This document shows positions 23,694 through 43,623 of a stretch of DNA of 64,000 nucleotides, in pieces. The notes beneath the pieces were generated by a model. That model saw only the letters and a list, made by a program, of their open reading frames with translations. It did not search any database and had not been told where the DNA came from. The position numbers and the translations under genes were made by a program. The stretch's first letter is position 1; the number at the start of each line of letters is the position of its first letter. The DNA comes from a virus, in IMG/VR virus record IMGVR_UViG_3300024348_000008. One strand, written 5' to 3'.

Positions 23694-25202
23694 ATGGCAA
23701 ATTTAACAAGAATAAAGATATTAAATACGGGCGTAACCACTGCTGCTCCAAGTAATATCGCAACAGGTGAATTAGCCTATTCATGGGTAGCAGGAACACA
23801 GGCAAATAACGGTGATCGATTATATATCGGTACAGGAACCGAAAGCGGAGGAGTTGCTTCTGCGGTTAGTCTTATTGGTGGTAAGTATTTCACTCAAATG
23901 CTGGATCATGTACATGGTACAGCAACTGCATCTAGTGCGGCAATATTAGATGCTAATAAACATTTATCAGATGTAGCAATTGGTAGTTTACAACTTGGTT
24001 CAAGTGGTGGATCAGGTCAAGCAGTAACTTCCATTAGTACAAGTACGACATTAGCGGGTGCAGCCAATACACAATTAGTAACAGCTCTTGCGGCTAAGAC
24101 TTATATAGATGCTCAAGTTACAGCACAAGATTTAGATATAACCGGTGATTCTGGTTCAGGTTCAATTGATCTAGATTCCGAAGTATTAGACTTTAATGGT
24201 CTAACAGGTATTACAACTTCTGTTAGTTCTAACACAGTTAATATCGACTTAGATGACACTGCTGTAACACCAGCAAGTTATGGTTCACAAACACAAATTC
24301 CTACTTTTACTGTTGATCAACAAGGTCGTTTAACAGCTGCCGGTGTAGTTGCAGTTGCAACCGCATTAACAGTTGATGGTGATTCTGGAACTGGCGACGT
24401 TGATCTATTAACAGACGATTTAAGAATTATAGGTACTGCAAACGAAGTTGACACAGTCTCTTCAAAATCTGGTACAGATGTAACGTTACAAGTTGGACTT
24501 CCAAGCAATGTAACAGTTGCAAACAATTTAACAGTAACAAATACATTAGCAGTAAATGGTAATGTTACTTTAGGTAATGCCACAAGTGATACAGTTGTTA
24601 TTGCTGGTAACCTAACGGTTAACGGTACTCAAACTTCTGTTAATTCAACTGAAGTAACGTTAGACGATCCAACAATGATGTTGGGTGATAATACTTCTTC
24701 GGCCGATGGTCTTGATAGAGGTATTGCTTTCAAATGGCATAATGGATCTGCTGTTAAAACAGGTTTCTTTGGATTTGATATTCAAACACAAAGATTAGTA
24801 TTTACTAATGATGAAGACCTTTCTGGTGGAGATAATGCTTCATCACCATGGCACGATGCTCAATTTGGAGGAGCTTATTTAGGTAACGTTCAAGTTGGTA
24901 TCACTGGTGATAATGAAATTGACACTACTTCAGGTAACTTAACAATTGATTCTGCTGGTGGAACAACTACTATAGATGATGCACTTACAGTAACTGGAGT
25001 TGTTGAATTAACAAATGGTAGTGGTTTAAGAGTAGAAGAAGGTGGTACAGGTAAAAGATCTATCACAGCAAATGCTGTATTAGTAGGTGCTGGAACAAGT
25101 GCACCAACAGAGAAAATTTCTTCGGCAGCTGGTAACGTATTACAAGGAGCAGCTAACGGTACAGTATCTTGGTCAAATATAATCGATGGCGGAACCTACT
25201 AA
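23694..25202 (+). CDS. proximal tail fibre/linker protein (Mtd-N-like N-terminus)
   Basis: RIKI..GELAY..RLYIG N-terminal domain; AAKTYIDAQV, VDQQGRLT, GNLTVNGTQTSVNS; ends IDGGTY. Confidence 0.7.
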   Translation: MANLTRIKILNTGVTTAAPSNIATGELAYSWVAGTQANNGDRLYIGTGTESGGVASAVSLIGGKYFTQMLDHVHGTATASSAAILDANKHLSDVAIGSLQLGSSGGSGQAVTSISTSTTLAGAANTQLVTALAAKTYIDAQVTAQDLDITGDSGSGSIDLDSEVLDFNGLTGITTSVSSNTVNIDLDDTAVTPASYGSQTQIPTFTVDQQGRLTAAGVVAVATALTVDGDSGTGDVDLLTDDLRIIGTANEVDTVSSKSGTDVTLQVGLPSNVTVANNLTVTNTLAVNGNVTLGNATSDTVVIAGNLTVNGTQTSVNSTEVTLDDPTMMLGDNTSSADGLDRGIAFKWHNGSAVKTGFFGFDIQTQRLVFTNDEDLSGGDNASSPWHDAQFGGAYLGNVQVGITGDNEIDTTSGNLTIDSAGGTTTIDDALTVTGVVELTNGSGLRVEEGGTGKRSITANAVLVGAGTSAPTEKISSAAGNVLQGAANGTVSWSNIIDGGTY

Positions 25203-28200: not shown

Positions 28201-28767
28201 CAAACAGAAAATAATTGCTTTGTATTCTGGGATGGTGTATATCAAGAAAAAAATCAATATACAGTAAGCGGAACAACACTCGCATTTGGTGGAAGTAATA
28301 TTCCTCCATCAGGAACAAATATTGAAGTTATTACACCAACAGTTACGGCAGTAAATGTACCAACTCAAGGTTCTGTTGTTCCAAATTCAATGTCAACCGG
28401 TGGTCCTTCATGGGATTCTGCCGGTGCTGTCACAATATCTGAATCAGTACAAAATACTGTAACAACAAATATTACTAATACAACTGCGACTACTATTCTT
28501 TCTCTTCCTGCTGCCACATTTAGATCGGCAAAGGTTGAGATTTCTATCTCTGATGCAACTAGTTCAGATTATGAATTTGTTGAAGTTGGTATGGTACATA
28601 ATGGATCTGTAACTTCTTCTACAACGTATGGTCAAGTATATACCGGTTCTGCAAGTAATGGAACTATTACCTCTGGATATTCTGGTAGTAATATGATATT
28701 ACAATTCACTTCAGCTAATACAAACACTCTCGCAATAAAAGCCAAATACTCTGCACTTAAAGTTTAA
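25297..28767 (+). CDS. multidomain tail fibre, candidate branching scaffold (TTG start)
   Basis: AGGAG RBS; IKLRRS..GELALNTYDGKLY N-terminal domain; one VHLNGILL domain, three GVYQ domains, C-terminal FRSAK..VHNG..YG domain; internal repeats. Confidence 0.75.
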   Translation: MARISNIKLRRSATAGAIPTTSNLDLGELALNTYDGKLYMKKSVGGTDSIQEIGASSAGAADIVKYFRYVATSTQTSFSGSDSNSNTLTYVVSAIDVHLNGILLDPSQDYTANNGSTVVLTSGATVGDILQITAYYRTIGTGDDVVQAFTGDGSAYSFTLSTNPIDENQTLIYIDGVYQNKSAYTVSGTTLSFGSGNAPASGAVIEVVTHSSNLTATNIADLTITGDFTTNTISASGTITGNLTGNVTGNTSGSAGTVTSLSGHDTDDLSEGSSNLYYTTARFNSALASANSGSLSEGSNLYYTNARARGAISVTDSGGDGSLSYNSSTGVITYTGPSAAEVRAHFSAGSNITISGTGVIAGSAAYTDSDARGAISVTDAGGDGSLAYNSSTGVITYTGPSAAEVRAHLSAGTGMTFSGGAFATTITQYTTALARATISVTDAGGDGSLAYNSSTGVITYTGPSAAEVRAHISAGTGVAIASGAISIGQAVATTSDVTFNDVQVDGDQVITGNLTVNGTQTNINTATLSVEDLNITVGKLATTSAATNGAGLTFGAWSSGTIPTLTWDHSNARFAMNKSLAANIVGNLTGNVTGNTSGSSGSTTGNAATATALATARTIGGTSFDGTANIAVALSATATALATARTIGGVSFDGTANINLPGVNASGTQDTSGNAATATTAGTVTTAAQTAITSVGSLTGLDVNGAVTINDNLSLDGSNKELRFYEGANYVGFEAPALSANQIWVLPTADGTAGYALKTDGSGNLSWGLAGGNAFETIAVSGQSSLVADSSSDTLTIVGGTGITLTTAAGTDTLTITNTATGANAFGNVAVSGQTTCAADNTNDTLTLVAGNGMSITTNGTDTVTIAGAAATNPLGTQLHTATNAQTVFAIGQTPASEDALMVFVEGVYQNKNSYTISGSNLTFDSGIQTGEEVVIHSVTNGINGTGQNVDIFTGNGSTHSYTLTVDPQTENNCFVFWDGVYQEKNQYTVSGTTLAFGGSNIPPSGTNIEVITPTVTAVNVPTQGSVVPNSMSTGGPSWDSAGAVTISESVQNTVTTNITNTTATTILSLPAATFRSAKVEISISDATSSDYEFVEVGMVHNGSVTSSTTYGQVYTGSASNGTITSGYSGSNMILQFTSANTNTLAIKAKYSALKV
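26419..26657 (+). repeat. 50-bp exact direct repeat (26419..26468 and 26608..26657) within three AISVTDxGGDGSLxYNSSTGVITYTGPSAAEVRAH units
   Basis: ataagtgttacagatgctggtggagatggttcacttgcatacaatagttc occurs twice. Confidence 0.9.
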
Positions 28768-28819: not shown

Positions 28820-31800
28820 GTGGCAGATAAAGATTTTAAAATAAAAAATGGTCTCGAAGTAGGAGATCATATTTCATTACCTGATAGTAAACAGGTACAA
28901 TTTGGCGATGGAAGTGATGGAACAATTTATCATGACGGTTCTCATTTTAGACTTCGTGCCGGCACAGGCACTTTCAACGTACAAGCAAACGACTTTCATA
29001 TTACCGATGCAAGTAATACTACTGCTAGATTTGTAGTTGATCATGACGGCACAACAAGCATACGTTATAATGGAGTTGAAAAATTAGGTACGTCTTCTAC
29101 CGGTGGTGCTCTTACTGGAGTTTGGACAGGTAATTCTGTAACACAAGGAGTAACTAGTAATAATACTGCCTTTGCTACAACAGAATTTGTTACAAGAGCG
29201 GTTAACAATTTAATCGATGGTGCACCGGCTACTCTCAATACACTTAATGAAATTGCTGCAGCAGTTAACGATGATGCCAACTATGTTGGTACAATTAATA
29301 GTGCACTCGCTCTTAAAGCTCCTTTGGCAAGTCCTACATTTACAGGTACGGTAACTTTACCGGCCACAGTTTCAAGTAGTATAACACCTGCCTCAGATTC
29401 AGTCTATAGTTTAGGATCAGATTCTGTAAGATTTGCAGCTGGATATCTCGACGGTTTAAATGTTACAAATCATGTAACAGCCGGGGGTTCTAGCTCAAGC
29501 TCGGTACCCATTTTTAAATTTGAAGGTGATACAAATACTGGTTTAGGTTATATCGGAGCTGATGCGGTTGGTTTAATAGCAGGTGGTTCTCGTAAGTTCT
29601 ATGTAAATGCCACAACAGCCTATTTTCAGAATCTTTCAGGTGGAACTTCTTTTGGCTCTAATGTTACTATTACTGGTACAGTTACAATTCCAAGTACATC
29701 AAGCGGTAACGTCAATAACGAGAGTCATGTACTTATAAGAAATCTAGCAAATGGCAACATTGTTACAGATTCTCTTTTATATAATTGTGCAGAGGACAAA
29801 CTAACTGTTGCAGGGGGTACTTTCATAACTTCTGGCTACATTAGAAGTGGAGCTGCAGATATGAAGTTTGGTACTGCATCAAATGGTGTAATGATTACCC
29901 TTGATGATAGTGCTAATACCGTTGGTATTGGCTCTAATGTTACTATTACTTCAACTAGCCCTACACTTTCCTTAGTCAATACTACAGCTGGAACAGGAAA
30001 GACATTTCAGTTTCGTAATCTTTCTCAAGGTGAATTTGATATATTAGATCCATCTAGTAATTCTGCTATTGGTATAAACAATTTAGGGTGTGTGGCTATT
30101 CGCGGAAGACCTGCTTATAACAATGCTAGTATTGGGATTAATTTATTTTCTGATAGTACTACAGGAGCAACGCTAGGAACTCGAATACAAAACAATGGGT
30201 CTGGTAGATTATTAGATGTTAATAGTTCTGCAGGTACTAAATTTACTATTCTTAACGATGGCAAGGCAAGATTAGGAAATGTGCTATCAACACACGGACA
30301 CGCAAACGCTGATGATCTTATTGTCGGAGACATCTCAGGAGCGTCAACAGGATTAACTATCGTAACTGCTGATGGTGGTACTGGTAATATTCATTTTGGA
30401 GATGGTACAAGTTCAGGAAACGCAAATATTCAAGGACAGTTAATATACGCTCATAATGATAATTCTATGCGCTTTTACACCGCTGTTGCTGAAAGAATAC
30501 GTATTACTTCTGATGGAGATGTTGGTATAGGATGTACTCCGGGTTCAGGAACAAGACTAGAAATAAGAGATGCAGCAAACTCGGCAATCATGGAGCTTTC
30601 AGGAACAGATGGTCGTGGATTAAAGTTATTTACTAAACCAAGCAACTGGCCAACTAATAGTGGTCAAAATGATGCATCGGTTGTTTATAATGCACAAGAT
30701 ACTGAACATTCTATCTATCCCCACCATATATTCCAAACGGGTGGTAATGAAAAATTACGAATTCAAAATAGTGGTGTTGGTATAGGGCTTGTACAGCCTA
30801 ATAATAAATTAGTATTATCAGATAGTTCAGCATCCTATGCTGGTCATGGAGGAGGTACTTATCTAGAAATTGTAAGAGGATCAGGCGCAGATGCCGGAAT
30901 AATCCTTAATAAAGATACTGGCCAGTGGATGATGGGAATTGATAATAGTGATGGTACTAATCCACCATTAAGATTTGAATATAGTGCTGGTGGATCTGCT
31001 CATGCAGGATTAGGTAATGGCACCACTGGATTAACACTTAATTATCAAGGTAAAGTTGGTATAGGTGAAACGGTCCCAATTAGAAAATTAACAGTTACTC
31101 ACCAAGGGAATGTAAGTGCCTTAATACATATGGACACTGACACTGTCGGTGGAACTGCAGCAGTTGAATTTAAAACGGATAGCACAAATAATGATAGAAG
31201 AATAAAAGGTGCTGTTATATTCAAGAGAGACGATCCTGGTACTAGAGGTACAGGTTCTTTAATACTAGCTACTCACGGCTTAAATAATGATACAAATGTT
31301 TCAGCGACAGATGCTAGATTAACAGTACAATCCCATGGAAATATTGATATAGCATATGGCTTACGGAAAGGTGGATGGCCGGGGTATGGTAATCCAACTC
31401 ATAGTGGTGCATATCAAGGAGCTGATGGCGTTGAATTTGGTTATGAGGGAATTTTTAAAACTGACACAATAGCAGGCTCAACCTCTGCGGCCGCAACAAG
31501 CCAATTCTTATCAGTATATTCTTCGGGACATTGGGGAGAATATCCAATATGTAGGCTAACTTATTATGGAACATATTATCAAGCTTCTTATAGACAATAT
31601 CTATTTAGAATGACTAGTTCTACTATTCAACTCGTAGAAAAACACGCATATGGTAGTACAACGTCTTTTGGCCCTGGAGCAGGTAATATAACAGCAAGTA
31701 GTGCAGTATTAGTAGGTAATGCTACTCATTCAGGCCAAAGTGTATATAGATGTGATTTAACGTTTGAGACTGGTGGTGCTTATGCCAGAGGACATGTTGT

Positions 31801-31957
31801 TATAGAAATAAGTTATGGTGGTGGCGGTAAAACCTATTGGTACAGCTCTGGTAAAACCCAAGCTCAAGTAGATAGTCATCAACAAACAAGGGGTGGTGCT
31901 TATCACTTTAAAACGCTCGCCGATAGTGCAATGCGTGAACAATATACAACTTTTTAG
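28820..31957 (+). CDS. tail fibre/receptor-binding protein, cassette 1 (GTG start)
   Basis: MADKDFKIKNGL N-terminus; GAPATLNTLNEIAAAVNDDANY; four VGIG module junctions; aromatic-rich C-terminal domain. Confidence 0.75.
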   Translation: MADKDFKIKNGLEVGDHISLPDSKQVQFGDGSDGTIYHDGSHFRLRAGTGTFNVQANDFHITDASNTTARFVVDHDGTTSIRYNGVEKLGTSSTGGALTGVWTGNSVTQGVTSNNTAFATTEFVTRAVNNLIDGAPATLNTLNEIAAAVNDDANYVGTINSALALKAPLASPTFTGTVTLPATVSSSITPASDSVYSLGSDSVRFAAGYLDGLNVTNHVTAGGSSSSSVPIFKFEGDTNTGLGYIGADAVGLIAGGSRKFYVNATTAYFQNLSGGTSFGSNVTITGTVTIPSTSSGNVNNESHVLIRNLANGNIVTDSLLYNCAEDKLTVAGGTFITSGYIRSGAADMKFGTASNGVMITLDDSANTVGIGSNVTITSTSPTLSLVNTTAGTGKTFQFRNLSQGEFDILDPSSNSAIGINNLGCVAIRGRPAYNNASIGINLFSDSTTGATLGTRIQNNGSGRLLDVNSSAGTKFTILNDGKARLGNVLSTHGHANADDLIVGDISGASTGLTIVTADGGTGNIHFGDGTSSGNANIQGQLIYAHNDNSMRFYTAVAERIRITSDGDVGIGCTPGSGTRLEIRDAANSAIMELSGTDGRGLKLFTKPSNWPTNSGQNDASVVYNAQDTEHSIYPHHIFQTGGNEKLRIQNSGVGIGLVQPNNKLVLSDSSASYAGHGGGTYLEIVRGSGADAGIILNKDTGQWMMGIDNSDGTNPPLRFEYSAGGSAHAGLGNGTTGLTLNYQGKVGIGETVPIRKLTVTHQGNVSALIHMDTDTVGGTAAVEFKTDSTNNDRRIKGAVIFKRDDPGTRGTGSLILATHGLNNDTNVSATDARLTVQSHGNIDIAYGLRKGGWPGYGNPTHSGAYQGADGVEFGYEGIFKTDTIAGSTSAAATSQFLSVYSSGHWGEYPICRLTYYGTYYQASYRQYLFRMTSSTIQLVEKHAYGSTTSFGPGAGNITASSAVLVGNATHSGQSVYRCDLTFETGGAYARGHVVIEISYGGGGKTYWYSSGKTQAQVDSHQQTRGGAYHFKTLADSAMREQYTTF
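29652..29950 (+). repeat. 23-bp direct repeat (29652..29674 and 29928..29950) bracketing an in-frame 276-bp module
   Basis: ttggctctaatgttactattact occurs twice. Confidence 0.85.
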
Positions 31958-31965
31958 GAATTAAT

Positions 31966-32214
31966 ATGGCAACACAAATAGCATACGTACATATTCTCTC
32001 AGAAGAAATAATATGTGTAAATATAACAAATGAAGAAGGGGCTACTGGTGAACAGGGTCAACCTGATGGTGCCACATGTACAACAGTTAATCCACATCTA
32101 GAAACAACAGTAACATATGAATTAGTAGATGGAGTTGTAACTGCAGTATCACAAACAGATGTTATGGATAGAATGAATGATCCAGATGATACAACAGTAG
32201 TAGCTCCAACATAA
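31966..32214 (+). CDS. small acidic protein, putative fibre chaperone of cassette 1
   Basis: AGGA RBS; follows a fibre gene like the other cassette partners; ends VAPT. Confidence 0.6.
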   Translation: MATQIAYVHILSEEIICVNITNEEGATGEQGQPDGATCTTVNPHLETTVTYELVDGVVTAVSQTDVMDRMNDPDDTTVVAPT

Positions 32215-32225
32215 TAGGATATAAA
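32200..32225 (+). repeat. 26-bp cassette junction repeat, copy 1 (copy 2 at 35758..35783)
   Basis: gtagctccaacataataggatataaa identical in both. Confidence 0.92.
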
Positions 32226-32230
32226 CAATA

Positions 32231-35200
32231 ATGGCATTAACTAAAATAAAATCAACAGGAATCGATACTCTGGCCGGAGATATATCTCTTGTGGATAGTG
32301 CTAAAATTAATCTTGGTACTGGAAATGATTTACAACTGTATCATTCGGGTTCTAAGAGTTATATTAAAGATGCTGGAACCGGTAATTTAGCTATATTAAC
32401 AAGTACGTTAGAATTAAATAATGCTGCAGATTCACAAAACATGGTTACTGCTAATGAAGGTGGAGGGGTTTATCTTTACCATGCTGGTTCAACTAAACTA
32501 GCCACAACATCTACAGGAGTAACAATAACAGGAACAGCCGTAGCAACAGCATTTACTGGTAACGTAACAGGTAATGCATCAACTGCTACTCAAGCTTATG
32601 TTAGTAATAGCGATGGTAATGGTAATTACAGATTAATATGGACTACTGGCACTACTTCAGGCAATTCACAGTTATTCAATACTGGTGGGGTTACATTAAA
32701 TGCATCTACTAATGCAGTTAGTGCAACAACATTTATTGGAGCTTTAACAGGTAATGTTACAGGTAACACATCAGGTACAGCAGCTACAGTAACAACAGCA
32801 GCACAACCAGCAATTACTTCTGTAGGAACATTATCAAGTTTAGCAGTAGGAAATATTACAACCACCGGATATATAAGAGGTCCTGCATCTTTTGTAATCG
32901 ATCCGGCAACACATGGCGATGATACCGGTACACTTGTTATAGCAGGTAATCTTCAAGTTGATGGCACAACGACCACAATCAACAGCACAACAGTGTCTGT
33001 CGATGATGTTCAAATTATTTTGGCTCAAGGAGCTTCAAATTCTGCGGCAGCGAATGGTGGTGGTATTATACTTGATGGTGCAAATGCAAGTATTTCATAT
33101 ACTCATGCTACAACCAGTTGGGATTTTAATAAACCAATTAAATCAGCAAGCTATATAGAAGCCGTAGGCAATATATCTACAGGAACCAATGCTGGAAGAT
33201 TAAGAGCCGGTGGTTCTAATGAAATGCAACTCTATTTTACAGGGTCACATGGGATATTAAGCAGCAGCACAGGTAATTTCACAGTAGATGTAGCAGGAGA
33301 TATTATTCTTGATGCAGATGGTGGTGATATTAAATTCCAAGATGCGGGAACAGATATTGGATCATTAATTCATAGTGGCAATGACTTACAAATAAAATCT
33401 GCTATATCAAATGGAGATATGGTATTTAGAGGTAATGATGGCGGAACTATAATAACTGCTGGTTACTTTGATATGTCAGATGCAGGAGCATTCCATGTTA
33501 ATACTGACATACGCATCAAAGACAACATGGCTGTACGCTTTGGAGATGACCAAGATTTTAGAATATATACTGACGGTAGTCATACAACTCTACACAATGG
33601 AGTAAGTAACCAAGATATAATGTTTAAAGGTGTTGATGATGGCGCAGCTATCACAGCGCTTACTTTGGATATGTCAAACGCAGGAAAGGCAACCTTTAGT
33701 GGTATTGTAAAATCATTGGTTGGTTTTGAAAGCGGCGATTTATTTATAACCCCTAACGAAATTGACGTAAGTTCTGGAGACCTAACACTAGATGTAGCAG
33801 GAGATATTACTCTTGATGCTGATGGTGGTGATATAAGATTTAAAGATGCAGGTAATACTTTTGGTTATGCAAATGCTAACAATATGGATTTTGTTCTTGG
33901 AGTAGGAACTCCAGATAAAGATATAATCTTTAAAGGAACGGACTCAGACGGTGCTGGTGCAATAACAGCTCTTACTATTGATATGTCAGAAAGAGGAAAA
34001 GCAACCTTTATTAGTGGTATAACAGCAGGAACCAGTACTGCAGGAGATTGGGGTTTAACTCTCAATACTGAAGCTGGCGATAGTATGAAACTGTCTGTCC
34101 AAGATACTGGATCCTCAGGAGCTGCTCATGGAATACTATCTGTTTCAGATGGTGGGTTTACTATCGACGTGGCAGGAGATATTAATCTTGATTCTGCTGG
34201 CGAAATAAGAGTACAAAATCAAACTCTTGTAGATAGTGCAAATACAAATTATATTATGACCTTTCCCAATAATAAAGGTATTGCTATAGGCAGTGCCTAT
34301 ACGTATGGCGAATTAAATGCTAACAATGGCAACCTTTATTTAAGAGCTAATTCATATCCTGCGAATACAGGCTCAACCTCCAAAATATATTTACAAACTG
34401 CCAATGGTTCAGGCGGTCAAGCGGCAGATGTAGTAATTGATAATGGCAACGTTGGTATTGGAACAACTGATGTAGGTGCTCCACTAACTATTCAAACTAA
34501 CGATAGCACTACTGGTGATGTTGTAAATACCATTATGATTAGAAATACGTCAACTGGAACAACTACTACAGGATTTGGTGGTGAAATTAGATTCCAAGCT
34601 GAAAGAAACAATGGTGCTATTCAAAACACAGGTAGAATTGCATCAACCGCAGACGTTAATTCTGGAACTAATATATCTTCTGGTCTTGGTTTTTGGACAA
34701 GTACAGTTGGAGTTATTACTGAGAAAATGCGTATTTCTTATGATGGAAAAGTTACGGTATCTAACAACAAACCAATATGGTCAGGTTCTTATGGTGGTGG
34801 TTTATTCTTAAAAGGTAACAACTCCACCTCTGACAGATACGCGAGAATATGCACTGTTGACTCTACTGGTGCTGCAATTAACAACGGATTAACAGTCAAT
34901 AACGATGGCTCAACTACGATAGATTGCGGTCAAACATATGGATTAAATATTTTAGGAAATGGTAGTGGATTAAGATTTTCTACTGGCTCAAATCAAAGAC
35001 TATATTGGAACACTCATAGAGCTCTCGAAGGAGCAGCAGATGGTAGTGTCTTACAAGTTGGAGAAGGTTTCACAAAGATACTTTCGCAAGGACGAGAAGT
35101 TTGGTATGCAGACGGCGTATATCATTTCAAAATAAGCAAGGCTGTTACTTGTACTGGTAGTTCTGTTACTAGACACACGCTAAATATTAATACTCTTTTA

Positions 35201-35560
35201 GGTGCAGCCACAGGTGGCACACTACGATATGAAGTTTCAATAGCGGGTTACGGAAGTGGTGGCTCTAATGGAGCAAATGCTAAATATAGTGTGGCTGGTT
35301 ACTCTGGCCACAGTTATTCAGCTACTAACTACGGAAGTTTTGGTGCCGGAACTATTCAAAATGGTTACAAGTCAAGTAACAGCACATCTTATGATGCTAA
35401 GGGGATTTCATATCATCCATGTATAAACATGGGTTCGTATATAGCCAATGGGGAAGTGTGGGCATATGTTCCTGGTGCACAACAATATGGGTTCACAATT
35501 TCAAACAACAGTAGTAATAACTTCGGTGCTATTTTAACAGTAGAGGGGATTTATACATAA
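32231..35560 (+). CDS. tail fibre/receptor-binding protein, cassette 2
   Basis: MALTKIKSTGIDTLAGDISL start; GNDLQLYH..SYIKDAGTGNL; DIILDADGGDI repeats; GNVGIGTT. Confidence 0.75.
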   Translation: MALTKIKSTGIDTLAGDISLVDSAKINLGTGNDLQLYHSGSKSYIKDAGTGNLAILTSTLELNNAADSQNMVTANEGGGVYLYHAGSTKLATTSTGVTITGTAVATAFTGNVTGNASTATQAYVSNSDGNGNYRLIWTTGTTSGNSQLFNTGGVTLNASTNAVSATTFIGALTGNVTGNTSGTAATVTTAAQPAITSVGTLSSLAVGNITTTGYIRGPASFVIDPATHGDDTGTLVIAGNLQVDGTTTTINSTTVSVDDVQIILAQGASNSAAANGGGIILDGANASISYTHATTSWDFNKPIKSASYIEAVGNISTGTNAGRLRAGGSNEMQLYFTGSHGILSSSTGNFTVDVAGDIILDADGGDIKFQDAGTDIGSLIHSGNDLQIKSAISNGDMVFRGNDGGTIITAGYFDMSDAGAFHVNTDIRIKDNMAVRFGDDQDFRIYTDGSHTTLHNGVSNQDIMFKGVDDGAAITALTLDMSNAGKATFSGIVKSLVGFESGDLFITPNEIDVSSGDLTLDVAGDITLDADGGDIRFKDAGNTFGYANANNMDFVLGVGTPDKDIIFKGTDSDGAGAITALTIDMSERGKATFISGITAGTSTAGDWGLTLNTEAGDSMKLSVQDTGSSGAAHGILSVSDGGFTIDVAGDINLDSAGEIRVQNQTLVDSANTNYIMTFPNNKGIAIGSAYTYGELNANNGNLYLRANSYPANTGSTSKIYLQTANGSGGQAADVVIDNGNVGIGTTDVGAPLTIQTNDSTTGDVVNTIMIRNTSTGTTTTGFGGEIRFQAERNNGAIQNTGRIASTADVNSGTNISSGLGFWTSTVGVITEKMRISYDGKVTVSNNKPIWSGSYGGGLFLKGNNSTSDRYARICTVDSTGAAINNGLTVNNDGSTTIDCGQTYGLNILGNGSGLRFSTGSNQRLYWNTHRALEGAADGSVLQVGEGFTKILSQGREVWYADGVYHFKISKAVTCTGSSVTRHTLNINTLLGAATGGTLRYEVSIAGYGSGGSNGANAKYSVAGYSGHSYSATNYGSFGAGTIQNGYKSSNSTSYDAKGISYHPCINMGSYIANGEVWAYVPGAQQYGFTISNNSSNNFGAILTVEGIYT
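32239..32310 (+). repeat. about 72-bp near-identical 5' gene repeat shared with 39657..39728 (first 36 bp exact)
   Basis: aactaaaataaaatcaacaggaatcgatactctggc in both, then four mismatches. Confidence 0.9.
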
Positions 35561-35772
35561 TGGAACTTTTAAACTTAGGTATAGTTCAAGTATATGAAGA
35601 TGGTCTTTTTAGACATATTCACCCATCTACAAAAGTAGATGAAACGTGGCAAGACACAGATGTATCAGGAGAAACAACAGAAGTTAAAGAATTTTGTGAA
35701 GCATCTTGGACTAATGAAATTAAAATAGAATATCAAACACACATTGATGCAAATTTGGTAGCTCCAACATAA
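35560..35772 (+). CDS. small fibre-associated protein of cassette 2 (putative chaperone)
   Basis: TAATG coupling; GIVQV..EDG..FRH..P..DTDVSGE..EVKEFC...WT.E pattern resembling small proteins that follow phage fibres; ends VAPT. Confidence 0.65.
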   Translation: MELLNLGIVQVYEDGLFRHIHPSTKVDETWQDTDVSGETTEVKEFCEASWTNEIKIEYQTHIDANLVAPT

Positions 35773-35783
35773 TAGGATATAAA
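35758..35783 (+). repeat. 26-bp cassette junction repeat, copy 2
   Basis: identical to 32200..32225. Confidence 0.92.
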
Positions 35784-35788
35784 AAGTA

Positions 35789-38700
35789 ATGGCATTAACA
35801 AAAGTAGTAAGACATTTAAGTAGCACACCAAGTATTGTAGATGGTGGGAACGCTACTGCGATCACGATTGATAGTTCAGAGAATATATCACTAGCTTCAC
35901 ACGTTCAAGTAGCCGATAATAAAAATTTAAAGTTTGGTGATGATACTGATGCACAATTGTATTATAATTCATCTAATGATATATTTTATATTTACAATAG
36001 TGGTGCTAATGGTGGCACTATTATACAAAATAATAGTGCATCAGGTGGAATTGTATTACAACCTGTTCCTAACGAAAATGCCGTATTTTGTGCACCTAAT
36101 GGCGAAGTTATACTTTATCATAATAGTTCAGCAAAACTAACCACAACATCGACAGGAATAACTGTCACCGGTGCAATTACTGGTACACTTGCAAGCACTG
36201 TTACTGCAACTACACAATCAGCAGGAACTAATTCAACTTTAATCGCAACGACAGCCTATACAGATGCTGCAATCACTGCGCTTGTTGGTGGTGCTCCTGC
36301 AACCTTAGATACACTTAACGAAATTGCGGCATCAGTTAATGATGATGCTAACTATGTTGGTACAGTTAATAGCTTACTTGCTGCAAAAGCACCTTTAGCC
36401 AGTCCTACATTTACTGGAACAGTAACTACTTCTGGTAATTTAGATATAAATGGAAATCAGTTAATCTTAGATGCAGATGCAGATACTTCAATTAGAGAAT
36501 CCGCAGATGATTATTTAATAATGAAAGTTGGTGGAACGGATTTAATTAAAATAGATGCAAGTGGTTTAGGAATAGGAATAAGACCAGCAGAAATGCTTGA
36601 TATTCAGTCGGCTTCAGGCGATGCAAGAATAAGATTAGATGCTCCTGCAGGTTCAGACACAGAAGTTAAATTCTTTAATGCCGGCTCTGCTCAATATACT
36701 ATTGGACATGATGATGGTACTGATAACTTTGTTATTGGTGGTGCTAATGTAGATGCACCTTATGTTAATGTAACTAAGGCAGGATATGTTGGTATAGGAA
36801 TTACGGATCCTTCAGATTACTATGCAAAAAATTTAGTTGTAAATAGTGGTGCCGAAGGTGGTATCACTATTGTCGGTGGAACGGGTCATGTGAACTATCT
36901 TATGTTCGCTGACGGGACATCGGGTAATACTCAATATCGTGGTTATATTGAGTATAGCCATATTACTGATGGAATGAAGCTCAATACAGCAGGTACTCCT
37001 GCGCTAACTCTTGATATATCTCAAAACGCTATATTTACAAACGATATTAAGTTTACTTCTGATGCTGGTGGAAACATAGGATTAAATTCCGGAAATAGAC
37101 CTAATAATATATCTATGGCAGGTGGGCTTGGTGTTAATGCGGCTGCTGGAGGTGCAGGAACGATCGCCTTCTCAGGTGATATAACACAAGCACAAGGTGA
37201 TTATCTTTATAGTGGTGGCACCAACTTTGATATTAAGCATACAGTTGCATCTCAAAATATAATTATTTCTACAAGACCTAGTGGTGGTTCTATAACACCT
37301 AGAATGAGAATCACTCATGATGGAAAATTTGGTATGGGAGATACTCCATCTAATTTAACCTCTGAAATAATAACAATAACAACTCCGGCTTCTGGTGGTG
37401 GACAAGGTATAGCCTTTAAACGATTAGACAGTAATAATGACCAAACAGTCGGACAAATAAGATTTTCTAATAATGCAACAGATAATTTAGCATATATTAG
37501 ATGTATTACAGATGGAGATACTACATCTTCAAGATTAGAGTTTCATACAAATACCGGTTCAGCAACTGCTGCAAACTTAGTAATTAAAAAAAATGGTAAT
37601 GTTGCTATAAATTACGGTTTAGGCGGTGGGGCTATAAACTCTAAGTTCAATGTTTTTGCAGATGGCGAAGCTCTTCGTTTAGATGGTACTGCAAACACAT
37701 CACGAACACTTAGATTTAGAAATGCTGCAGTCAATGGTTCTGGTAACGCAATTATAACATCAGATGGAATTTTACAAATAAAGACAGAAGATGCTAATGC
37801 ACACATATATGTAAACTCCGTAAGAGATATTGCCATGCAAGTCACGTCTTTAAACGGAACTGCTGGCCACTTTACATTCTCCTCTTATAATACAGAAATT
37901 ATGAGAATTGATGGTGCTAATAACAGAGTTGGTATAGGTACTGGAGCGAATCCTAATCTTAAATTGCACGTAGAAGAAAACGCTGATACTTGGGTTGGAG
38001 AGTTTAAGAACGTAAGAGGCGCTGGTGGTTATGGTTTAAGAGTTGATATGTCAGCAGGTAGTGCTACAGATACAAGATATGCTCTTGGTGTTTATACACC
38101 AGGTAATAGTGGCCTTTTTGTAAGAAATAATGGCAATGTTGGTATTGGAACAACGGCCCCTTCAGATACATTAGTTGTTCAAAGAAGTACTGCAAATATA
38201 GAACCTATACTCGTTATTAAAAACGATAATACTACTGATGATAATGGTGTATCAATAGATTTCTCAGGTAAAGATACATCATCAAATCATGTTATATATG
38301 GTCGTATTGCTACGAAATATACTAATCATAGTACTGAAAAATCTCATATGATTTTTACACACAGAAATAATAGTGGTACTTTTGATGAATGGATGAGAGT
38401 TAATCATGATGGCCAAGTTGGTATCGGAACAGCGAGTCCAAGTTCTGCATTGCATGTTCATGAGAATGATTCTGCCAAAGGCAATACACAATTACATATT
38501 CATAATGATAAAACAGATGATGCAGGTGTACTAAGAATTGAAGGTAAAAGAATCTCAGAAAACGATACAGCCCAAATTTTACTTGCTAATAATGGTAATT
38601 TAGTATCAGCAATTAAAGCATATTCAGGCGGAGATGGAGGGCATTTAAGATTTTATACAAGTAAATCTGGTAGTGGTTCTTCAGCTATGGATGAAAGATT

Positions 38701-39295
38701 ACGACTCCATGATACAGGTGTATTAGAATTTAAGGGTAGTGATAATACAGAAGGTATTAAATTTGGTTCTAATCAAAGAATATATGGTGGAACTATCCGA
38801 GCATTTGAACCCGCAATGACTTCCGATGGAACAGTTTCTATAGGTGAAGGATTAGATGCAGATGATGGAACAGTTTCTATTTTTGGAGTGGTAAATATTA
38901 GAGAACAGTTAACTTCTCCTGGAGGAGGAGTAGATGCTGGTGAATTTATTTCTTATATGCAAGGAACTGGTTGGACAGATATACTTAATATACATTTTTC
39001 TAACGCGTCTTGGGGGTCTATAACAATTAATGTTCAGTTCCCGGGCAATTCAAGTGGATCTGATTCTGTATTTCAACAAGTTACTGCTTATGGTCATGCT
39101 GCATTGACCGGAGCAAATGTAAGTTATTCGGATATTAGTGGAGAAGGAACAGGTTATTTTAATTGGGTTAGTTTCAGCGGTGGCACCAAACTTCAACTTA
39201 AAACACAATATTCAACAGATGATGCCGCAGTAAGAATTAGTTATACAATGAATCATCGAACAAGTCAAAATTTATGGGTAGAGAGGTTAGCGTAA
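35789..39295 (+). CDS. tail fibre/receptor-binding protein, cassette 3
   Basis: MALTKVV start; ATAITIDSSE; GAPATLDTLNEIAASVNDDANY; four VGIG junctions. Confidence 0.75.
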   Translation: MALTKVVRHLSSTPSIVDGGNATAITIDSSENISLASHVQVADNKNLKFGDDTDAQLYYNSSNDIFYIYNSGANGGTIIQNNSASGGIVLQPVPNENAVFCAPNGEVILYHNSSAKLTTTSTGITVTGAITGTLASTVTATTQSAGTNSTLIATTAYTDAAITALVGGAPATLDTLNEIAASVNDDANYVGTVNSLLAAKAPLASPTFTGTVTTSGNLDINGNQLILDADADTSIRESADDYLIMKVGGTDLIKIDASGLGIGIRPAEMLDIQSASGDARIRLDAPAGSDTEVKFFNAGSAQYTIGHDDGTDNFVIGGANVDAPYVNVTKAGYVGIGITDPSDYYAKNLVVNSGAEGGITIVGGTGHVNYLMFADGTSGNTQYRGYIEYSHITDGMKLNTAGTPALTLDISQNAIFTNDIKFTSDAGGNIGLNSGNRPNNISMAGGLGVNAAAGGAGTIAFSGDITQAQGDYLYSGGTNFDIKHTVASQNIIISTRPSGGSITPRMRITHDGKFGMGDTPSNLTSEIITITTPASGGGQGIAFKRLDSNNDQTVGQIRFSNNATDNLAYIRCITDGDTTSSRLEFHTNTGSATAANLVIKKNGNVAINYGLGGGAINSKFNVFADGEALRLDGTANTSRTLRFRNAAVNGSGNAIITSDGILQIKTEDANAHIYVNSVRDIAMQVTSLNGTAGHFTFSSYNTEIMRIDGANNRVGIGTGANPNLKLHVEENADTWVGEFKNVRGAGGYGLRVDMSAGSATDTRYALGVYTPGNSGLFVRNNGNVGIGTTAPSDTLVVQRSTANIEPILVIKNDNTTDDNGVSIDFSGKDTSSNHVIYGRIATKYTNHSTEKSHMIFTHRNNSGTFDEWMRVNHDGQVGIGTASPSSALHVHENDSAKGNTQLHIHNDKTDDAGVLRIEGKRISENDTAQILLANNGNLVSAIKAYSGGDGGHLRFYTSKSGSGSSAMDERLRLHDTGVLEFKGSDNTEGIKFGSNQRIYGGTIRAFEPAMTSDGTVSIGEGLDADDGTVSIFGVVNIREQLTSPGGGVDAGEFISYMQGTGWTDILNIHFSNASWGSITINVQFPGNSSGSDSVFQQVTAYGHAALTGANVSYSDISGEGTGYFNWVSFSGGTKLQLKTQYSTDDAAVRISYTMNHRTSQNLWVERLA

Positions 39296-39624
39296 TGGAT
39301 ATAATGAATATAATATTAGAGAAAGGTGGATATGACAACTGTACAGCAGAAGAAAAAACTGCTGCAGATAATTATGCCTATGCTCAAGTACGAAATAGAA
39401 GAGACAAATTATTAGGATGGACAGATAAATATGCAGTTCCTGATTTTGCACATAAGACCGAAGATTTAAAAGCTTCAATACTTGTCTATAGACAAGCATT
39501 AAGAGATATAACAGATACAAAACCAACTTTAAATAATTATATGATAGTAAATAATATTACTTGGCCAACACACGAATATGTAACAGATGAAATGATTTTA
39601 AAATCTGGACCGTTTACAGTATAA
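39295..39624 (+). CDS. phage tail fibre assembly chaperone; start placed at the ATG overlapping the upstream stop
   Basis: VRNRRDKLLGWTD..PDF..YRQALRDIT..ITWPT; TAATG at 39293..39297 is in frame with the 39274 ORF. Confidence 0.8.
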   Translation: MDIMNIILEKGGYDNCTAEEKTAADNYAYAQVRNRRDKLLGWTDKYAVPDFAHKTEDLKASILVYRQALRDITDTKPTLNNYMIVNNITWPTHEYVTDEMILKSGPFTV

Positions 39625-39632
39625 TGCTCATC

Positions 39633-39650
39633 ATAGGATATAAATAGTAA
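39633..39650 (+). promoter_or_regulatory. late promoter (39639..39646) inside an 18-bp junction repeat shared with 43650..43667
   Basis: ataggatataaatagtaa in both; ATG 13 nt from the first T. Confidence 0.85.
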
Positions 39651-39651
39651 T

Positions 39652-42600
39652 ATGGCAACTAAAATAAAATCAACAGGAATCGATACTCTGGCAGGAGATA
39701 TATCTCTTGCGGATAATGCTAAGATTAAACATGGTAGTAGTAATGATCTTCAAATTTATCATGATGGTTCACACAGTTATATTAAAGATGATGGAACAGG
39801 TAATCTTTATTTAGGTGGATCTGCAGCAATATCATTTAATAGTTCAGACTTTGGTGAAACTTACGCTATAATGAATGATGATGGTGCAGTAGTTTTATAC
39901 CATAATAATGTTGCTAAGTTATCTACAGATGCTCAAGGTATTAATGTTACTGGTGGAATAGATGTAGCAGATATTACTGCCACTGGAAATATTAGTTTAA
40001 ACTCTGATAATGGAACATTATATTTTGGAGCTGGCTCAGATATGCGCCTATATCATGATAGTAACAATAGTTATATAGATGATTCTGGTACAGGTGGTTT
40101 AAAAATAAGAGCTAGTGAGTTTCAAGTACTGAAATATGGTACTGCTGAACAAATGTTGAGTGCAACTCAAGATGGTGCAGTCACTCTTTACTACGATAAT
40201 GCTGCTAAGTTGGCCACGACAAATACTGGTGTAAATATTACTGGTACTATAGTAGGTGCTACGGCTACTGCAAGTGGTGGTACTAGTACTACTGCACTTG
40301 CTTCTACAGCATTCGTACAACAAGAATTAACCACGCTAATAGGTGGTGCACCAAGCACCCTCAACGACCTGAATGAATTAGCGGCCGCTATCAACGATGA
40401 TGCAAATTATAATAGTACTCTTACTACGGCATTGGCTACTAAACTACCTCTAGCTGGTGGTGAAATGAGTGGCACTTTAAATATTACTCAAGCATCTACT
40501 AATGATACTATTAAATTAACTAGAGGTACAACTAGTCATAATAACATGATTAAGTTCCGAAGTGCTGGAGCAGATAAGTGGATTCTAGGACAAAGAAACG
40601 ATAGCACAGAGCATTTTAGACTTTATTCTTATGGTACAAGTACTGATGTGCTATCTATTTTAACAGACGGTAAAGTTGGTATAGGCTATAACAATCCACA
40701 AAATAATATTCATGTTCTAGGAAACAGCTCTATTCCTAATGTAGGTTTAACATTACAAACACATGATACTGCTAATGCTATTGCCAATATTAATCTATTG
40801 TCAAGGCTTGCAGATAATGTCAATAAGACAGTTGAGCTTAGAGCGTATAGAGGAAATCTAATAATTCTTGGTGACACAGGATATGGCAAGGTTGGTATAG
40901 GAACTACGACTCCTGATGCACAATTTGAAGTAAGAGGAGATGCATATAAAGCAAGATTTACAAGGTCAGGAAGTGCTGGAACAAACGTAGAGTTCTATTA
41001 TGGAGCAACTCAAGCAGGTGGAATACAAGTTCAATCTACGGGTCTTGGTATAAGTGGTGCTGCTCGCGAAAATGATTTATTTATTAAGAGTGATGGCAAA
41101 GTTGGTATAGGAGAAACTTCACCATTAGGTAAGCTTCATGTAAAAAGTAGCGATTCTGGCGCGACAGCTGATGCAAGCGCTGATGAATTGGTTGTTGAAA
41201 ATAATTCAAATACTGGAATAAGTATTTTATCTGGTACAAGTAGTACTGGTTCAATTTATTTTGGAGATAGTGGTACAAACTGGGACGGATATATAGCATA
41301 TACTCATGGATCAGGCGCTACTCATAGAAAATTTGTTATTGGAACTGCTGCTGGTGGTAACTCTCTATCTATAGATGCCATTGGTCATGTTGGTATTGCA
41401 AAACAAACACCTATTGCTTGGGGTTCTGGTTATAAATCATTACAAATTGGGGCTAGAGGTTATGTTGGAGCACATAGCGGTAGTGATCTTTATGTAGGTC
41501 AAAATGCTTATCATAATAGTGGATGGAAATACGAAGCTTCAGTAGCGGCTTCTCTAACTCAACATTCAGGCGGTCAAATAACTCATTATGTAACACCTGC
41601 TGGAACAGCTGGTAATGCAATAACATGGAATATCGGCATGCATATAAAACCAACTGGCGAAGTTGGTATAGGAACTACGGCTCCAGCAGTAAACTTGCAT
41701 ATTAACAAAGGTTCTTCAACATTCCAACCCGCTGCCGGAGTAATAAAAAATTATTTTGCACTAAATACAGACTATGATTCAACTGGGGTTCAAGGCATAT
41801 ATTTTTCAAATCTAGACGGCAATTGGGTAGATGGGACTTCAGGTGCTGATTCCCAATTTGGTATGTTATTTGGATATCAGAATGCAACACGAGGTGGCCT
41901 AATTTACGATCATCGTGGCTCTGAAATGATGTCGCTTTGGTCAAGTTACGGTCCTCTTACCTTTATGACACCAGATGCTGCAGATGGTGATGGTGTTCCT
42001 ACAGATAGTAATATAAAAAGTAGATTAACAATTGATATAGGTGGCAACGTTGGTATTAATGGCGAGACAGATCCGCAAGCACCTTTGGATTGTGGAGTGA
42101 CTAGTCAAAACCAACAGGTAGTATTACTTAGGCAAAACGGTAATTCACGAACAGGCTTTAGTATTTCAAATGATTGGGGCGTAAGAGCCTTTGGTCCAGC
42201 CGATGCTAGTTCAACCGGCTCATTGTTTGGGGTCGGTGAAATGACCAGCGGTACAAATTATTTAGGTGATTTGTTTACTATTCGATATGATGGACGAGTT
42301 GGTATCGGAACTACGAGTCCTGGCTACCTGTTACATGCACAAAACTCAACCACCACCGGCCAAAGTGTAATAGCAACATCTGGTAATGGTGCATTTATAA
42401 TGGCTATTGGAAGCCAAAATTCCCCTGGCGTAGCACAAGAGGCTTTCATTGGTACTTTAAGTGATTCACGCTTTAAAATCAAAGTTAACAATGTAGTCAA
42501 GGGGTCTTGGACTGATGGCGGTTTAGCTATAGGAACTCACTCGAGTGCAAGCGCCCCATTAGATGTAGTTTGTAATAATAATGTTTGGGCTGGTGAATTT

Positions 42601-43275
42601 ACACAATCTAATACTTCAAATGGTGATGGTGTAATTGTCACAGTAGGAAGCACAGCATCAGCAGACTATGCTTTATCAATTAGATCTGATGCGGGAAATA
42701 CTTCAGGCTTAGCTGTTAAAGCAGATGGCTATGTTGGTATTGGTACTTTTATTCCCAACTCTCCATTACACGTCTACGGGCGTTTCAACCATAACTCCGC
42801 TGGAGGAACTACTCATCCTGGCTCTGCATCTTCAACCGAGCACAACATAACGACGTCTATACTTGGCGGAAAGCTGCGTTTTGGATTAGCAGTGGCTTTT
42901 CCAAATGGTACAAGTAATCTAGCAATTAGAATATATATAGACACAACTAGTTTATGGCTGGCCGGAGAAGTTACGATTGGATCCACATACAGTAATGCAG
43001 CAGCAACGGGACTTAATCGTTATAGTTTTAGCCACAACCAAAACACCACCAACAACTATGGAAATGTTTTAACTCAGACTGAATATTTTGGCCAAGTCGC
43101 TAGTCATTTTACATTTGATAGCCATGGCTATGATTCCACTGAGGGTGCTCATTATTTTGAATTTAGACATGCAAACAGTTACGGTAATACAATGTATCTT
43201 CAGTTTGAAGGCATGGGCAGTTCTCCCGCTCATGCTAACCTTGGAACTTGGTACTATAAACACATAACCTACTAG
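39652..43275 (+). CDS. tail fibre/receptor-binding protein, cassette 4
   Basis: MATKIKSTGIDTLAGDISL start; GAPSTLNDLNELAAAINDDANY; eight VGI junctions. Confidence 0.75.
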   Translation: MATKIKSTGIDTLAGDISLADNAKIKHGSSNDLQIYHDGSHSYIKDDGTGNLYLGGSAAISFNSSDFGETYAIMNDDGAVVLYHNNVAKLSTDAQGINVTGGIDVADITATGNISLNSDNGTLYFGAGSDMRLYHDSNNSYIDDSGTGGLKIRASEFQVLKYGTAEQMLSATQDGAVTLYYDNAAKLATTNTGVNITGTIVGATATASGGTSTTALASTAFVQQELTTLIGGAPSTLNDLNELAAAINDDANYNSTLTTALATKLPLAGGEMSGTLNITQASTNDTIKLTRGTTSHNNMIKFRSAGADKWILGQRNDSTEHFRLYSYGTSTDVLSILTDGKVGIGYNNPQNNIHVLGNSSIPNVGLTLQTHDTANAIANINLLSRLADNVNKTVELRAYRGNLIILGDTGYGKVGIGTTTPDAQFEVRGDAYKARFTRSGSAGTNVEFYYGATQAGGIQVQSTGLGISGAARENDLFIKSDGKVGIGETSPLGKLHVKSSDSGATADASADELVVENNSNTGISILSGTSSTGSIYFGDSGTNWDGYIAYTHGSGATHRKFVIGTAAGGNSLSIDAIGHVGIAKQTPIAWGSGYKSLQIGARGYVGAHSGSDLYVGQNAYHNSGWKYEASVAASLTQHSGGQITHYVTPAGTAGNAITWNIGMHIKPTGEVGIGTTAPAVNLHINKGSSTFQPAAGVIKNYFALNTDYDSTGVQGIYFSNLDGNWVDGTSGADSQFGMLFGYQNATRGGLIYDHRGSEMMSLWSSYGPLTFMTPDAADGDGVPTDSNIKSRLTIDIGGNVGINGETDPQAPLDCGVTSQNQQVVLLRQNGNSRTGFSISNDWGVRAFGPADASSTGSLFGVGEMTSGTNYLGDLFTIRYDGRVGIGTTSPGYLLHAQNSTTTGQSVIATSGNGAFIMAIGSQNSPGVAQEAFIGTLSDSRFKIKVNNVVKGSWTDGGLAIGTHSSASAPLDVVCNNNVWAGEFTQSNTSNGDGVIVTVGSTASADYALSIRSDAGNTSGLAVKADGYVGIGTFIPNSPLHVYGRFNHNSAGGTTHPGSASSTEHNITTSILGGKLRFGLAVAFPNGTSNLAIRIYIDTTSLWLAGEVTIGSTYSNAAATGLNRYSFSHNQNTTNNYGNVLTQTEYFGQVASHFTFDSHGYDSTEGAHYFEFRHANSYGNTMYLQFEGMGSSPAHANLGTWYYKHITY

Positions 43276-43284
43276 GAAGATATT

Positions 43285-43623
43285 ATGTACAAATTTACTT
43301 ACAAAAACGAAGACTATTATTTTAATCCAGAGAATCCTGAGCCTAGTATGAATCTTGAGACTGGTGAGATGGAATATGGAGATAAACTTAAAAATGTATT
43401 AGGTATGACAAATGCAGAAGCACTACAATGCCATGCGGAAGGATTACTTAACGAACTCAGGGGAGAACGCGATCTAAGGTTGGCTAAATGTGATTGGGCT
43501 GGTTCATATGATGTTTCAGATTCTATTAAAGCTGTTTATGCACCGTATAGACAAGCTCTTCGTGATATTACAGATACATACACTAATTTAGATGACGTTG
43601 TATGGCCGGCATTAGAAGAATAA
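43285..43623 (+). CDS. phage tail fibre assembly chaperone
   Basis: LRGERDLRLAKCDW..YRQALRDITDTY..DDVVWP. Confidence 0.82.
   Translation: MYKFTYKNEDYYFNPENPEPSMNLETGEMEYGDKLKNVLGMTNAEALQCHAEGLLNELRGERDLRLAKCDWAGSYDVSDSIKAVYAPYRQALRDITDTYTNLDDVVWPALEE

Follow-up and report, generated by a model that had tools for sequence, protein, structure and literature searches.

Why should one short word of DNA be spelled the same way at 17 places in four tail-fibre genes when the protein modules between those places share only 20-33% amino acid identity? The question is raised by a 64,000-nucleotide stretch of IMG/VR virus record IMGVR_UViG_3300024348_000008 (the window, by which we mean the whole stretch analysed), which comes from a marine T4-like myophage with a GC content of 36.5%. 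Within it, four fibre genes carry repeated Val-Gly-Ile (VGI) sites whose Val and Gly codons do not vary, giving the 8-mer GTTGGTAT at each. We propose, with a probability of about 0.65, that these 8-mers are in-frame short-homology crossover joints between fibre modules. The four genes were identified from their open reading frames (ORFs), their matches to PHROG tail-fibre families and their VGI sites:

28820-31957, plus strand, fibre gene 1, 1045 aa, four locked joints
32231-35560, plus strand, fibre gene 2, 1109 aa, one locked joint
35789-39295, plus strand, fibre gene 3, 1168 aa, four locked joints
39652-43275, plus strand, fibre gene 4, 1207 aa, eight locked joints

An initial inspection of the letters and ORFs alone (the sequence-only reading) had listed 17 junctions spelled GTT GGT ATH between highly divergent modules, and all 17 proved to be in-frame VGI sites in the four fibre ORFs. 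They are spaced 70-145 aa apart with the consensus x-x-L-x-I-x-x-x-G-x-V-G-I-G-x-T-x-P-x-x-x-L-x-V, in which V, G and I are the only invariant residues; positions below are counted from the Val. The 17 cores, each GTTGGTAT, are given here together with the ends of homology blocks shared with relatives, in nucleotides (nt) relative to the core start, the relatives being fetched contigs labelled L001 and so on:

29921-29928, plus strand, joint core; no block boundary in the relatives fetched
30521-30528, plus strand, joint core; no block boundary in the relatives fetched
30776-30783, plus strand, joint core; nearest boundary 64 nt downstream (L169)
31055-31062, plus strand, joint core; L169 block (81%, 30840-31066) ends 11 nt past the core start
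34451-34458, plus strand, joint core; L130 block (70%) starts at -6; 28-nt match to 38127-38154
36788-36795, plus strand, joint core; L127, L128 and L129 blocks (81-84%) end at -27 and -5
37928-37935, plus strand, joint core; L156 block (93%) ends at +10
38138-38145, plus strand, joint core, in-frame VGI; within the 28-nt match to 34440-34467
38417-38424, plus strand, joint core, in-frame VGI; 34-nt match to 42287-42320
40675-40682, plus strand, joint core; L133 switch; L143 and L149 blocks end at +11 and +7
40891-40898, plus strand, joint core; L147 block (73%) spans 40891-41111, core to core
41101-41108, plus strand, joint core; L140 switch; at least 15 loci with blocks starting at -10 to +3
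41389-41396, plus strand, joint core; L136 switch at the first core base; L141 block starts at 0, L140 block ends at +7
41662-41669, plus strand, joint core; L136 switch
42049-42056, plus strand, joint core; no boundary found in the relatives fetched
42298-42305, plus strand, joint core; L133 block (75%) starts at -12
42733-42740, plus strand, joint core; L134 switch; block of 83% over 1197 nt starts at -2

The 8-mer occurs 25 times in the window against 2.7 copies expected from shuffles (largest shuffle value 7). Codon statistics were drawn from the 64-kb window or from the four fibre genes. In the fibre genes GTT makes up 43-51% of Val codons and GGT 47-54% of Gly codons, and the alternatives GTA (38-42%) and GGA (29-33%) are common, as had been stated. 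At Val-Gly pairs outside VGI, GTT-GGT was found in 28/97 cases window-wide (29%) and 6/26 within the four fibres (23%). The binomial comparison with the genes' own usage that the sequence-only reading had called for thus gives a chance of 7e-10 to 1.5e-11 for 17/17. Among the 102 tripeptides with at least six copies in the fibre genes, VGI was the sole strong outlier (p = 1e-11; the next had p = 7e-4), and Gly before Ile without a preceding Val was GGA in 15 of 30 cases in the four fibres. Outside these fibres VGI reads GTC GGC ATT (3518), GTT GGG ATC (54057) and GTA GGA ATT (59852, in the sheath region), which bears out the earlier statement that VGI elsewhere uses other codons, except that one site had been missed: at 24894 a VGIT within the proximal fibre ORF 23694-25202 reads GTT GGT ATC. 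Codon-pair or context bias, the former named in the sequence-only reading as a result that would refute its idea, is ruled out by the 29% at other pairs, the GGA before Ile, the GTA GGA of the sheath region and the standing of VGI among the tripeptides.

The codon-invariant core first described needs qualifying. The lock is confined to two wobble bases, those of Val and Gly; the Ile wobble varies at background level (ATA at nine of the 17 sites, ATT at six and ATC at two). For the Gly(+3), Thr(+4), Thr(+5) and Pro(+7) codons, pair identity in the window is likewise at background, with Pro(+7) serving as an internal control without excess homogeneity. The Gly(-2) codons are heterogeneous yet enriched in GGC (8/14 against a background of 14.8%, p = 3e-4), and Gly(+3) is skewed to GGA (9/15, p = 0.02). 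Joints share DNA similarity over 25-34 nt around the motif and none beyond: 34440-34467 and 38127-38154 are 96% identical over 28 nt, which agrees with the extended copies reported at 34442 and 38129, and a 34-nt stretch at the 38417 site is 88% identical to 42287-42320. These patches are not clearly more alike than identical amino acids would make them, and we therefore do not count them in favour of conversion tracts. The fibres also hold five variants of the motif in which residues have changed:

33896-33907, plus strand, LGVG (CTT GGA GTA GGA)
36566-36577, plus strand, LGIG (TTA GGA ATA GGA), a candidate decayed joint whose central Gly is not GGT
37076-37087, plus strand, IGLN (ATA GGA TTA AAT)
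37328-37339, plus strand, FGMG (TTT GGT ATG GGA)
42226-42237, plus strand, FGVG (TTT GGG GTC GGT)

Their central Gly is GGA in three, GGT in one and GGG in one, and this mixture shows that the constraint acts on the intact 8-mer as a DNA unit. On the plus strand the 8-mer is confined to the fibre region 24894-45997, where each copy encodes V-G-I or V-G-M in frame; no copy lies between genes. Besides the site at 24894, in-frame GTT GGT AT copies outside the four fibres lie at 28585, where frame arithmetic alone gives Val-Gly-Met in ORF 25297-28767, and at 45997, where VGMT was confirmed in a 1942-aa fibre; at a 29% background these three are not significant by themselves. The reverse complement of the 8-mer is found on the minus strand at 4704, 5421, 9273, 25348 and 26204, on the coding strand of other genes. 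These five listed copies (six by count) against about 1.4 per strand expected from shuffles are probably a codon-usage effect.

Does the same spelling recur in other phages, or does each lineage have its own? Among relatives of fibres 3 and 4, GTT-GGT was used at 80 of 140 distinct joints, and some contigs were pure or near-pure for it (L130 11/11, L136 6/6, L133 5/5, L126 9/11). In the GC-richer relatives L001, L135 and L138 the spelling GTG-GGT is fixed (3/3 each), with GTG accounting for 10-12% of Val codons in L001 and L135 and 25% in L138, and L167 fixes GTG-GGC. An unbiased pattern scan of viral contigs for G-x-VGIGTT yielded 391 motif copies in 121 loci, many of which hold private spellings in codons that are rare for that locus. 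L086 has GTC GGT at 8/8 sites (GTC being 14% of its Val codons), L055 has GTC GGG (GTC 7/7 and GGG 6/7, against backgrounds of 13% and 9%), L065 spells the motif GGC AAC GTC GGT ATC GGG ACG ACG, and L091 has GTT GGT ATA GGA ACA at 13/14 sites. Measured against each locus's own background, the excess homogeneity extends over positions -2 to +5 and is absent at Pro(+7). Within-locus identity of the joint wobbles lay above all 2000 shuffles in nearly every set, the exception being the Gly wobble among the relatives alone (19/2000).

The module at 41101-41306 has orthologues in 15 loci, and in these its joint is spelled like the non-orthologous joints of the contig in which it resides. Its two joint wobbles match those of the window in 9/14 and 10/15 cases against 47% at ordinary four-fold sites, so that across lineages they are only slightly more conserved than such sites. 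Joints that agree within a genome but diverge almost neutrally from lineage to lineage are the mark of concerted evolution and not of purifying selection for one sequence, and the joint spellings therefore show concerted evolution, not codon bias. When the 121 loci of the scan (IMG/VR loci L006-L125) were pooled, the motif codons leaned to GC relative to each gene's own usage: GGC(-2) was observed 130 times against 62 expected, AAC 133 against 89, GTC 111 against 49, GGG(+3) 84 against 36 and ACG(+4) 109 against 38, with Pro(+7) unbiased. This suggests a pan-phage DNA consensus of GGC AAC GTC GGN ATC GGG ACG, and it is possible that the lean stems from GC-biased conversion or from a GC-rich source pool. 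The pooled sample also suggests that the DNA-level effect is widespread.

If the cores are joints, homology between related fibres should break at them, as the sequence-only reading expected of mosaic breakpoints. We compared the window by blastn blocks with relatives taken from viral and metagenome contigs and found that 8 of 32 distinct block starts fell within -12 to +8 nt of a core (null 2.6%, p = 1.3e-6) and 7 of 34 distinct block ends within -8 to +25 nt (null 4.3%, p = 5e-4). The second refuting outcome named in the sequence-only reading, breakpoints that fail to cluster at the motif, was thus not seen. Identity steps at individual cores, read from ungapped juxtaposition, were sharp. 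L133 is 99.5% identical to the window over 211 nt up to 40682 and 41% identical over the next 60 or more nt, being unrelated from the first base past the 8-mer at 40675. For L136, identity rises from 29% to 92% at 41389, and at 41662 it is 100% through the core and nine further bases and then 53%. L134 goes from 31% to 69% at 42733, and L140 from 37% to 88% at 41101. Taking the relatives together, a block boundary lies within about 12 nt of 12 of the 17 cores (27 nt for one of them). When the fetched loci were compared all against all, 268 of 1206 block starts lay within -15 to +10 nt of a core and only 18 joints lay 40 nt or more inside a homology block; these loci are redundant and not independent, and we therefore treat this comparison as supportive only. 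A search for orthologous joints inside long homology blocks, aimed at silent-site rates, gave only one usable pair, a scarcity that itself carries information.

Modules also move between fibre types, as L130 has a fibre-4-like N-terminus followed by a module resembling one in fibre 2. The proposal of in-frame joints for module exchange within and between fibres thus gained support from the breakpoints and from this exchange between paralogues. Within this genome, where the four fibres share no modules, we saw no evidence that they had traded any recently. Relatives of fibres 1 and 2 among the viral contigs were limited to L169 and L126. VGIG modules were also found in a 402-aa hypothetical protein of Pelagibacter phage HTVC304P (L170; OR420736.1, 34578-35783), a podophage of the Autographiviridae, in which one module matches that starting at 41101 in the window with 72% identity. 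Modules would accordingly travel across phage families, and there is a hint of a SAR11-like host for the phage of the window.

What kind of protein unit lies between the joints is suggested by solved structures. A profile of the 17 window modules matched structures of Bdellovibrio MAT fibres, with 8ond hit over three stretches (E = 2e-17), 8ojn at E = 9e-10, 8oml at E = 8e-8 and also 8ol4. In the account of these fibres by Caulton et al. 2024 (PMC10769870), the motif V-G-..-G/N-small-x-x-P-x-x-x-L is the capping loop, which lies at the edges of domains folded as intertwined trimeric beta-helices, and it occurs in S74-type phage fibres as well. The window consensus fits the published one, so the motif G-x-VGIGT-x-x-P-x-x-x-L-H-V corresponds to this capping loop, and each junction would then mark where a beta-helix module begins. 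None of the four fibres has an S74 domain by Pfam. Since, in addition, fibres 3 and 4 are followed by separate chaperone genes of family PF16778, the window fibres would be of a non-S74 kind. An AlphaFold2 single-sequence model of residues 474-690 of fibre 4 had a mean pLDDT of 36, and a monomer model of this sort cannot show a trimer.

Putting these results together, we suggest that the fibres are chains of trimeric beta-helix modules, each module opening with the capping-loop motif G-x-V-G-I-G-T-x-x-P-x-x-x-L-H-V, and that crossovers take place in frame at the short DNA spelling of the invariant centre of this motif, GTTGGTAT. When relatives infect the same cell, or when paralogous fibres recombine, the exchange would resolve in or at the 8-mer, so that whole modules are replaced while frame and fold stay intact. 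The comparisons above demonstrate the lock and that codon usage does not produce it, as well as the breakpoints at the core and the spellings particular to each lineage. We infer that the pairing substrate is the 8-mer plus variable extra identity from its conserved flanks. Deletions and exchanges at short repeats occur in T4, and the phage's own T4-type machinery would be the obvious candidate for the recombination pathway. The two silent positions would be kept identical at the 17 copies by a homogenising process at the DNA level rather than by codon preference; candidates are recurrent exchange at the joint, conversion of short patches from one joint to another, or an advantage in spreading for modules whose joints still match the pool.

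Several points weigh against this proposal. Eight bases are far below the homology length usual for efficient homologous recombination, and no enzyme or pathway can be named. In the window the Ile wobble and the flanking conserved codons sit at background, contrary to what a simple model of conversion tracts would lead one to expect, and the proposal does not account for an Ile wobble that is free in the window yet fixed in L091. The window has no single-base core variants as against 20-55% in relatives, a purity that is not accounted for either. Comparison of the window with itself revealed no module shared between any of the four fibres, and the 17 copies thus give no direct view of conversion among them. 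The clustering of breakpoints could in part reflect survival of those recombinants that respect domain boundaries, and BLAST anchoring on a conserved motif could add to it; the relatives, moreover, are metagenome contigs and partly redundant.

Other explanations would have to account for the silent sites and the breakpoints together, and none of the four that we weighed covers the whole pattern. Crossovers could happen anywhere, with only those that join at the capping loop folding and surviving; selection on the protein would then produce the clustering of breakpoints, and the lock would be a side feature, either unrelated or left unexplained. The motif does stand at the edge of each beta-helix domain in the solved MAT fibres, and module sizes of 70-145 aa are like those of such domains. 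In four high-identity cases, however, the step falls within a few bases of the 8-mer, and such filtering leaves both the 17/17 silent-site lock and the genome-specific spellings common to non-orthologous modules unaccounted for; we regard it as unlikely. The core could instead keep ancestral codons from a single amplified unit whose proteins diverged fast under host-range selection. That the modules are clearly homologous repeats fits such descent, and the skews of Gly(-2) and Gly(+3) could be ancestral residue, but neighbouring conserved codons have reached silent-site background while the two core wobbles are fixed, and amino acid identity between modules is down to 20-33%. The lineage comparison shows the opposite of what descent predicts, with orthologous joints differing between lineages and non-orthologous joints agreeing within a genome, which leaves this explanation very unlikely in our judgement.

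Selection on translation, in which the V-G pair of the loop needs particular codons for accuracy or speed, has on its side that no Val codon is used more in the window than GTT (45%) and no Gly codon more than GGT (54%). Yet other V-G and G-I pairs in the same genes are unbiased, the VGI in ORF 59501-61201 reads GTA GGA, the other conserved glycines of the motif favour GGC and GGA, and Ile is often ATA. The window has no tRNA gene. Other lineages lock rare codons (GTG at 10-12%, GTC at 13-14%, GGG at 9%), and these locks, together with the different codons at the other invariant glycines, rule out accuracy or speed as the main cause; we consider the explanation very unlikely. A site-specific nuclease or recombinase that recognises GTTGGTAT and drives exchange would explain a sharp boundary at a word of recognition-site size where homology is too short for ordinary homologous recombination. 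We give this hardly any credence, as plus-strand copies of the word are restricted to in-frame V-G-I or V-G-M positions of the fibre region, other lineages use different words, and there is no candidate enzyme in hand, none having been searched for.

Three other candidates were set aside. Preference for adenine-free codons, as in diversity-generating retroelement (DGR) scaffolds, would give GTT-GGT at only about 55% per site, and the flanking Gly is often GGA. Avoidance of internal Shine-Dalgarno words does not fit a Gly(+3) that is mostly GGA, so purine-rich words are tolerated. Invertase-driven switching of the Cin, Min or shufflon type, which uses inverted crossover sites on either side of a segment and a recombinase, does not fit, as the 8-mers in the four fibres are all direct and on the coding strand, no search for a recombinase having been made.

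A bolder extension of the crossover-joint proposal is that the joint spelling acts as a recombination 'dialect', with modules traded only between phages that share a core word (GTTGGTAT here; GTGGGTAT, GTCGGTAT and GTCGGGAT elsewhere). We consider it speculative and rather improbable. Were it true, silent bases would split phage populations into module-exchange communities, and modules would be semi-autonomous mobile units selected to keep a competent joint. In a stronger form of the idea, a dedicated enzyme would target the word.

Joints of a comparable kind are known from T-even phages, in which distal fibre and adhesin genes recombine at conserved motifs, the His boxes of gp37 and the glycine-rich motifs of gp38 (Tetart et al. 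1996, 1998, as cited in Trojet et al. 2011, PMC3157838). Those phages and the phage of the window both belong to the T4 superfamily, and in both, short conserved motifs lie between variable host-recognition segments. In the window, DNA conservation beyond what the protein needs was found in the 8-nt core only, and natural breakpoints fall at the motif. Unlike the T-even case, the motif here is the VGIG capping loop of beta-helix modules and belongs to long fibre shafts rather than to a small adhesin, the lock extends over only 8 nt of DNA, and silent sites are fixed at 17 copies over four genes in a lineage-specific spelling; the joints here are known from natural sequences, not from experimental crosses. 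With MAT and S74-type fibres (PDB 8ond, 8ojn, 8oml, 8ol4) the window fibres share the capping-loop protein motif repeated at domain edges, but by Pfam they have no S74 domain, and two of them are followed by PF16778 chaperone genes. Term searches of Caulton et al. 2024 (PMC10769870) turned up structure and prey binding, and nothing about conservation of the motif at the DNA level or about recombination there. PeSLs of T4-type phages are likewise short repeated DNA elements that act as recombination linkers and shuffle modules; as described in the 2010 report (PMC2839356), they differ in being intergenic promoter-terminator units that move whole genes, whereas the window joints lie in frame within coding sequence and shift protein domains. 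A literature search on VGIG and phage returned nothing relevant, and no paper on a DNA-level lock of the motif was found.

Motif-guided reshuffling of the fibres by which phages recognise their hosts is a known process, and we see the window as a clear new example of it. What it adds is a minimal core of 8 nt, a control provided by free neighbouring silent sites, and a test for concerted evolution based on an orthologous module. Tail fibres set which cells a phage infects, and if a fixed 8-base in-frame word is the exchange point, fibre evolution in the abundant marine T4-like phages could be read as reassortment from a pool of modules. The word would then be a marker for cutting fibres into units, building per-module phylogenies and tracking exchange in metagenomes. 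Silent sites that agree within a genome and differ between lineages also make a clean case of concerted evolution, here confined to two nucleotides in each repeat. The protein motif itself is shared by Bdellovibrio MAT fibres and many further viral contigs.

Turning to the setting of the fibre genes, the neck genes of the window resemble those of Pelagibacter phage Mosig and Methylophilales phage Melnitz, and the N-terminus of fibre 4 is similar to fibre gp28 of cyanophage P-SCSP1u (PDB 8i4m). A small ORF follows each fibre gene:

31966-32214, plus strand, small ORF after fibre 1, 82 aa, candidate chaperone slot (from the ORF list only)
35560-35772, plus strand, small ORF after fibre 2, 70 aa (from the ORF list only)
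39274-39624, plus strand, tail-fibre assembly chaperone after fibre 3 (Pfam PF16778, E = 4.5e-11)
43285-43623, plus strand, tail-fibre assembly chaperone after fibre 4 (Pfam PF16778, E = 2.5e-11)

The N-termini of fibres 2 and 4 are paralogous (32239-32386 and 39657-39804, 86% over 148 nt), as are inner segments of fibres 1 and 3 (29218-29356 and 36289-36427, 81% over 139 nt), and these two pairings would fit an alternating duplication of cassettes. After cassette 4 comes the 1942-aa fibre, at 43669-49497, which lacks VGI joints and has many internal DNA repeats of its own, including 44375-44423 and 44213-44261 (49 nt at 100%) and another of 141 nt at 83%. Its C-terminus matches PHROGs of the long-tail-fibre distal subunit.

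Fibre 2 contains a second class of repeated DNA word (…GGAGATATTAATCTTGAT…) at 34166-34200, 33785-33852 and 33281-33348, including a 68-nt pair at 88% identity. The homology of fibre 2 to its close relative L126, at 90-96% upstream, ends directly past this word at 34200, and beyond the matching point L126 has different modules that bear VGIG. It is possible that this word may be another class of joint. The protein region that it encodes gave a weak match to the DUF5649 repeat.

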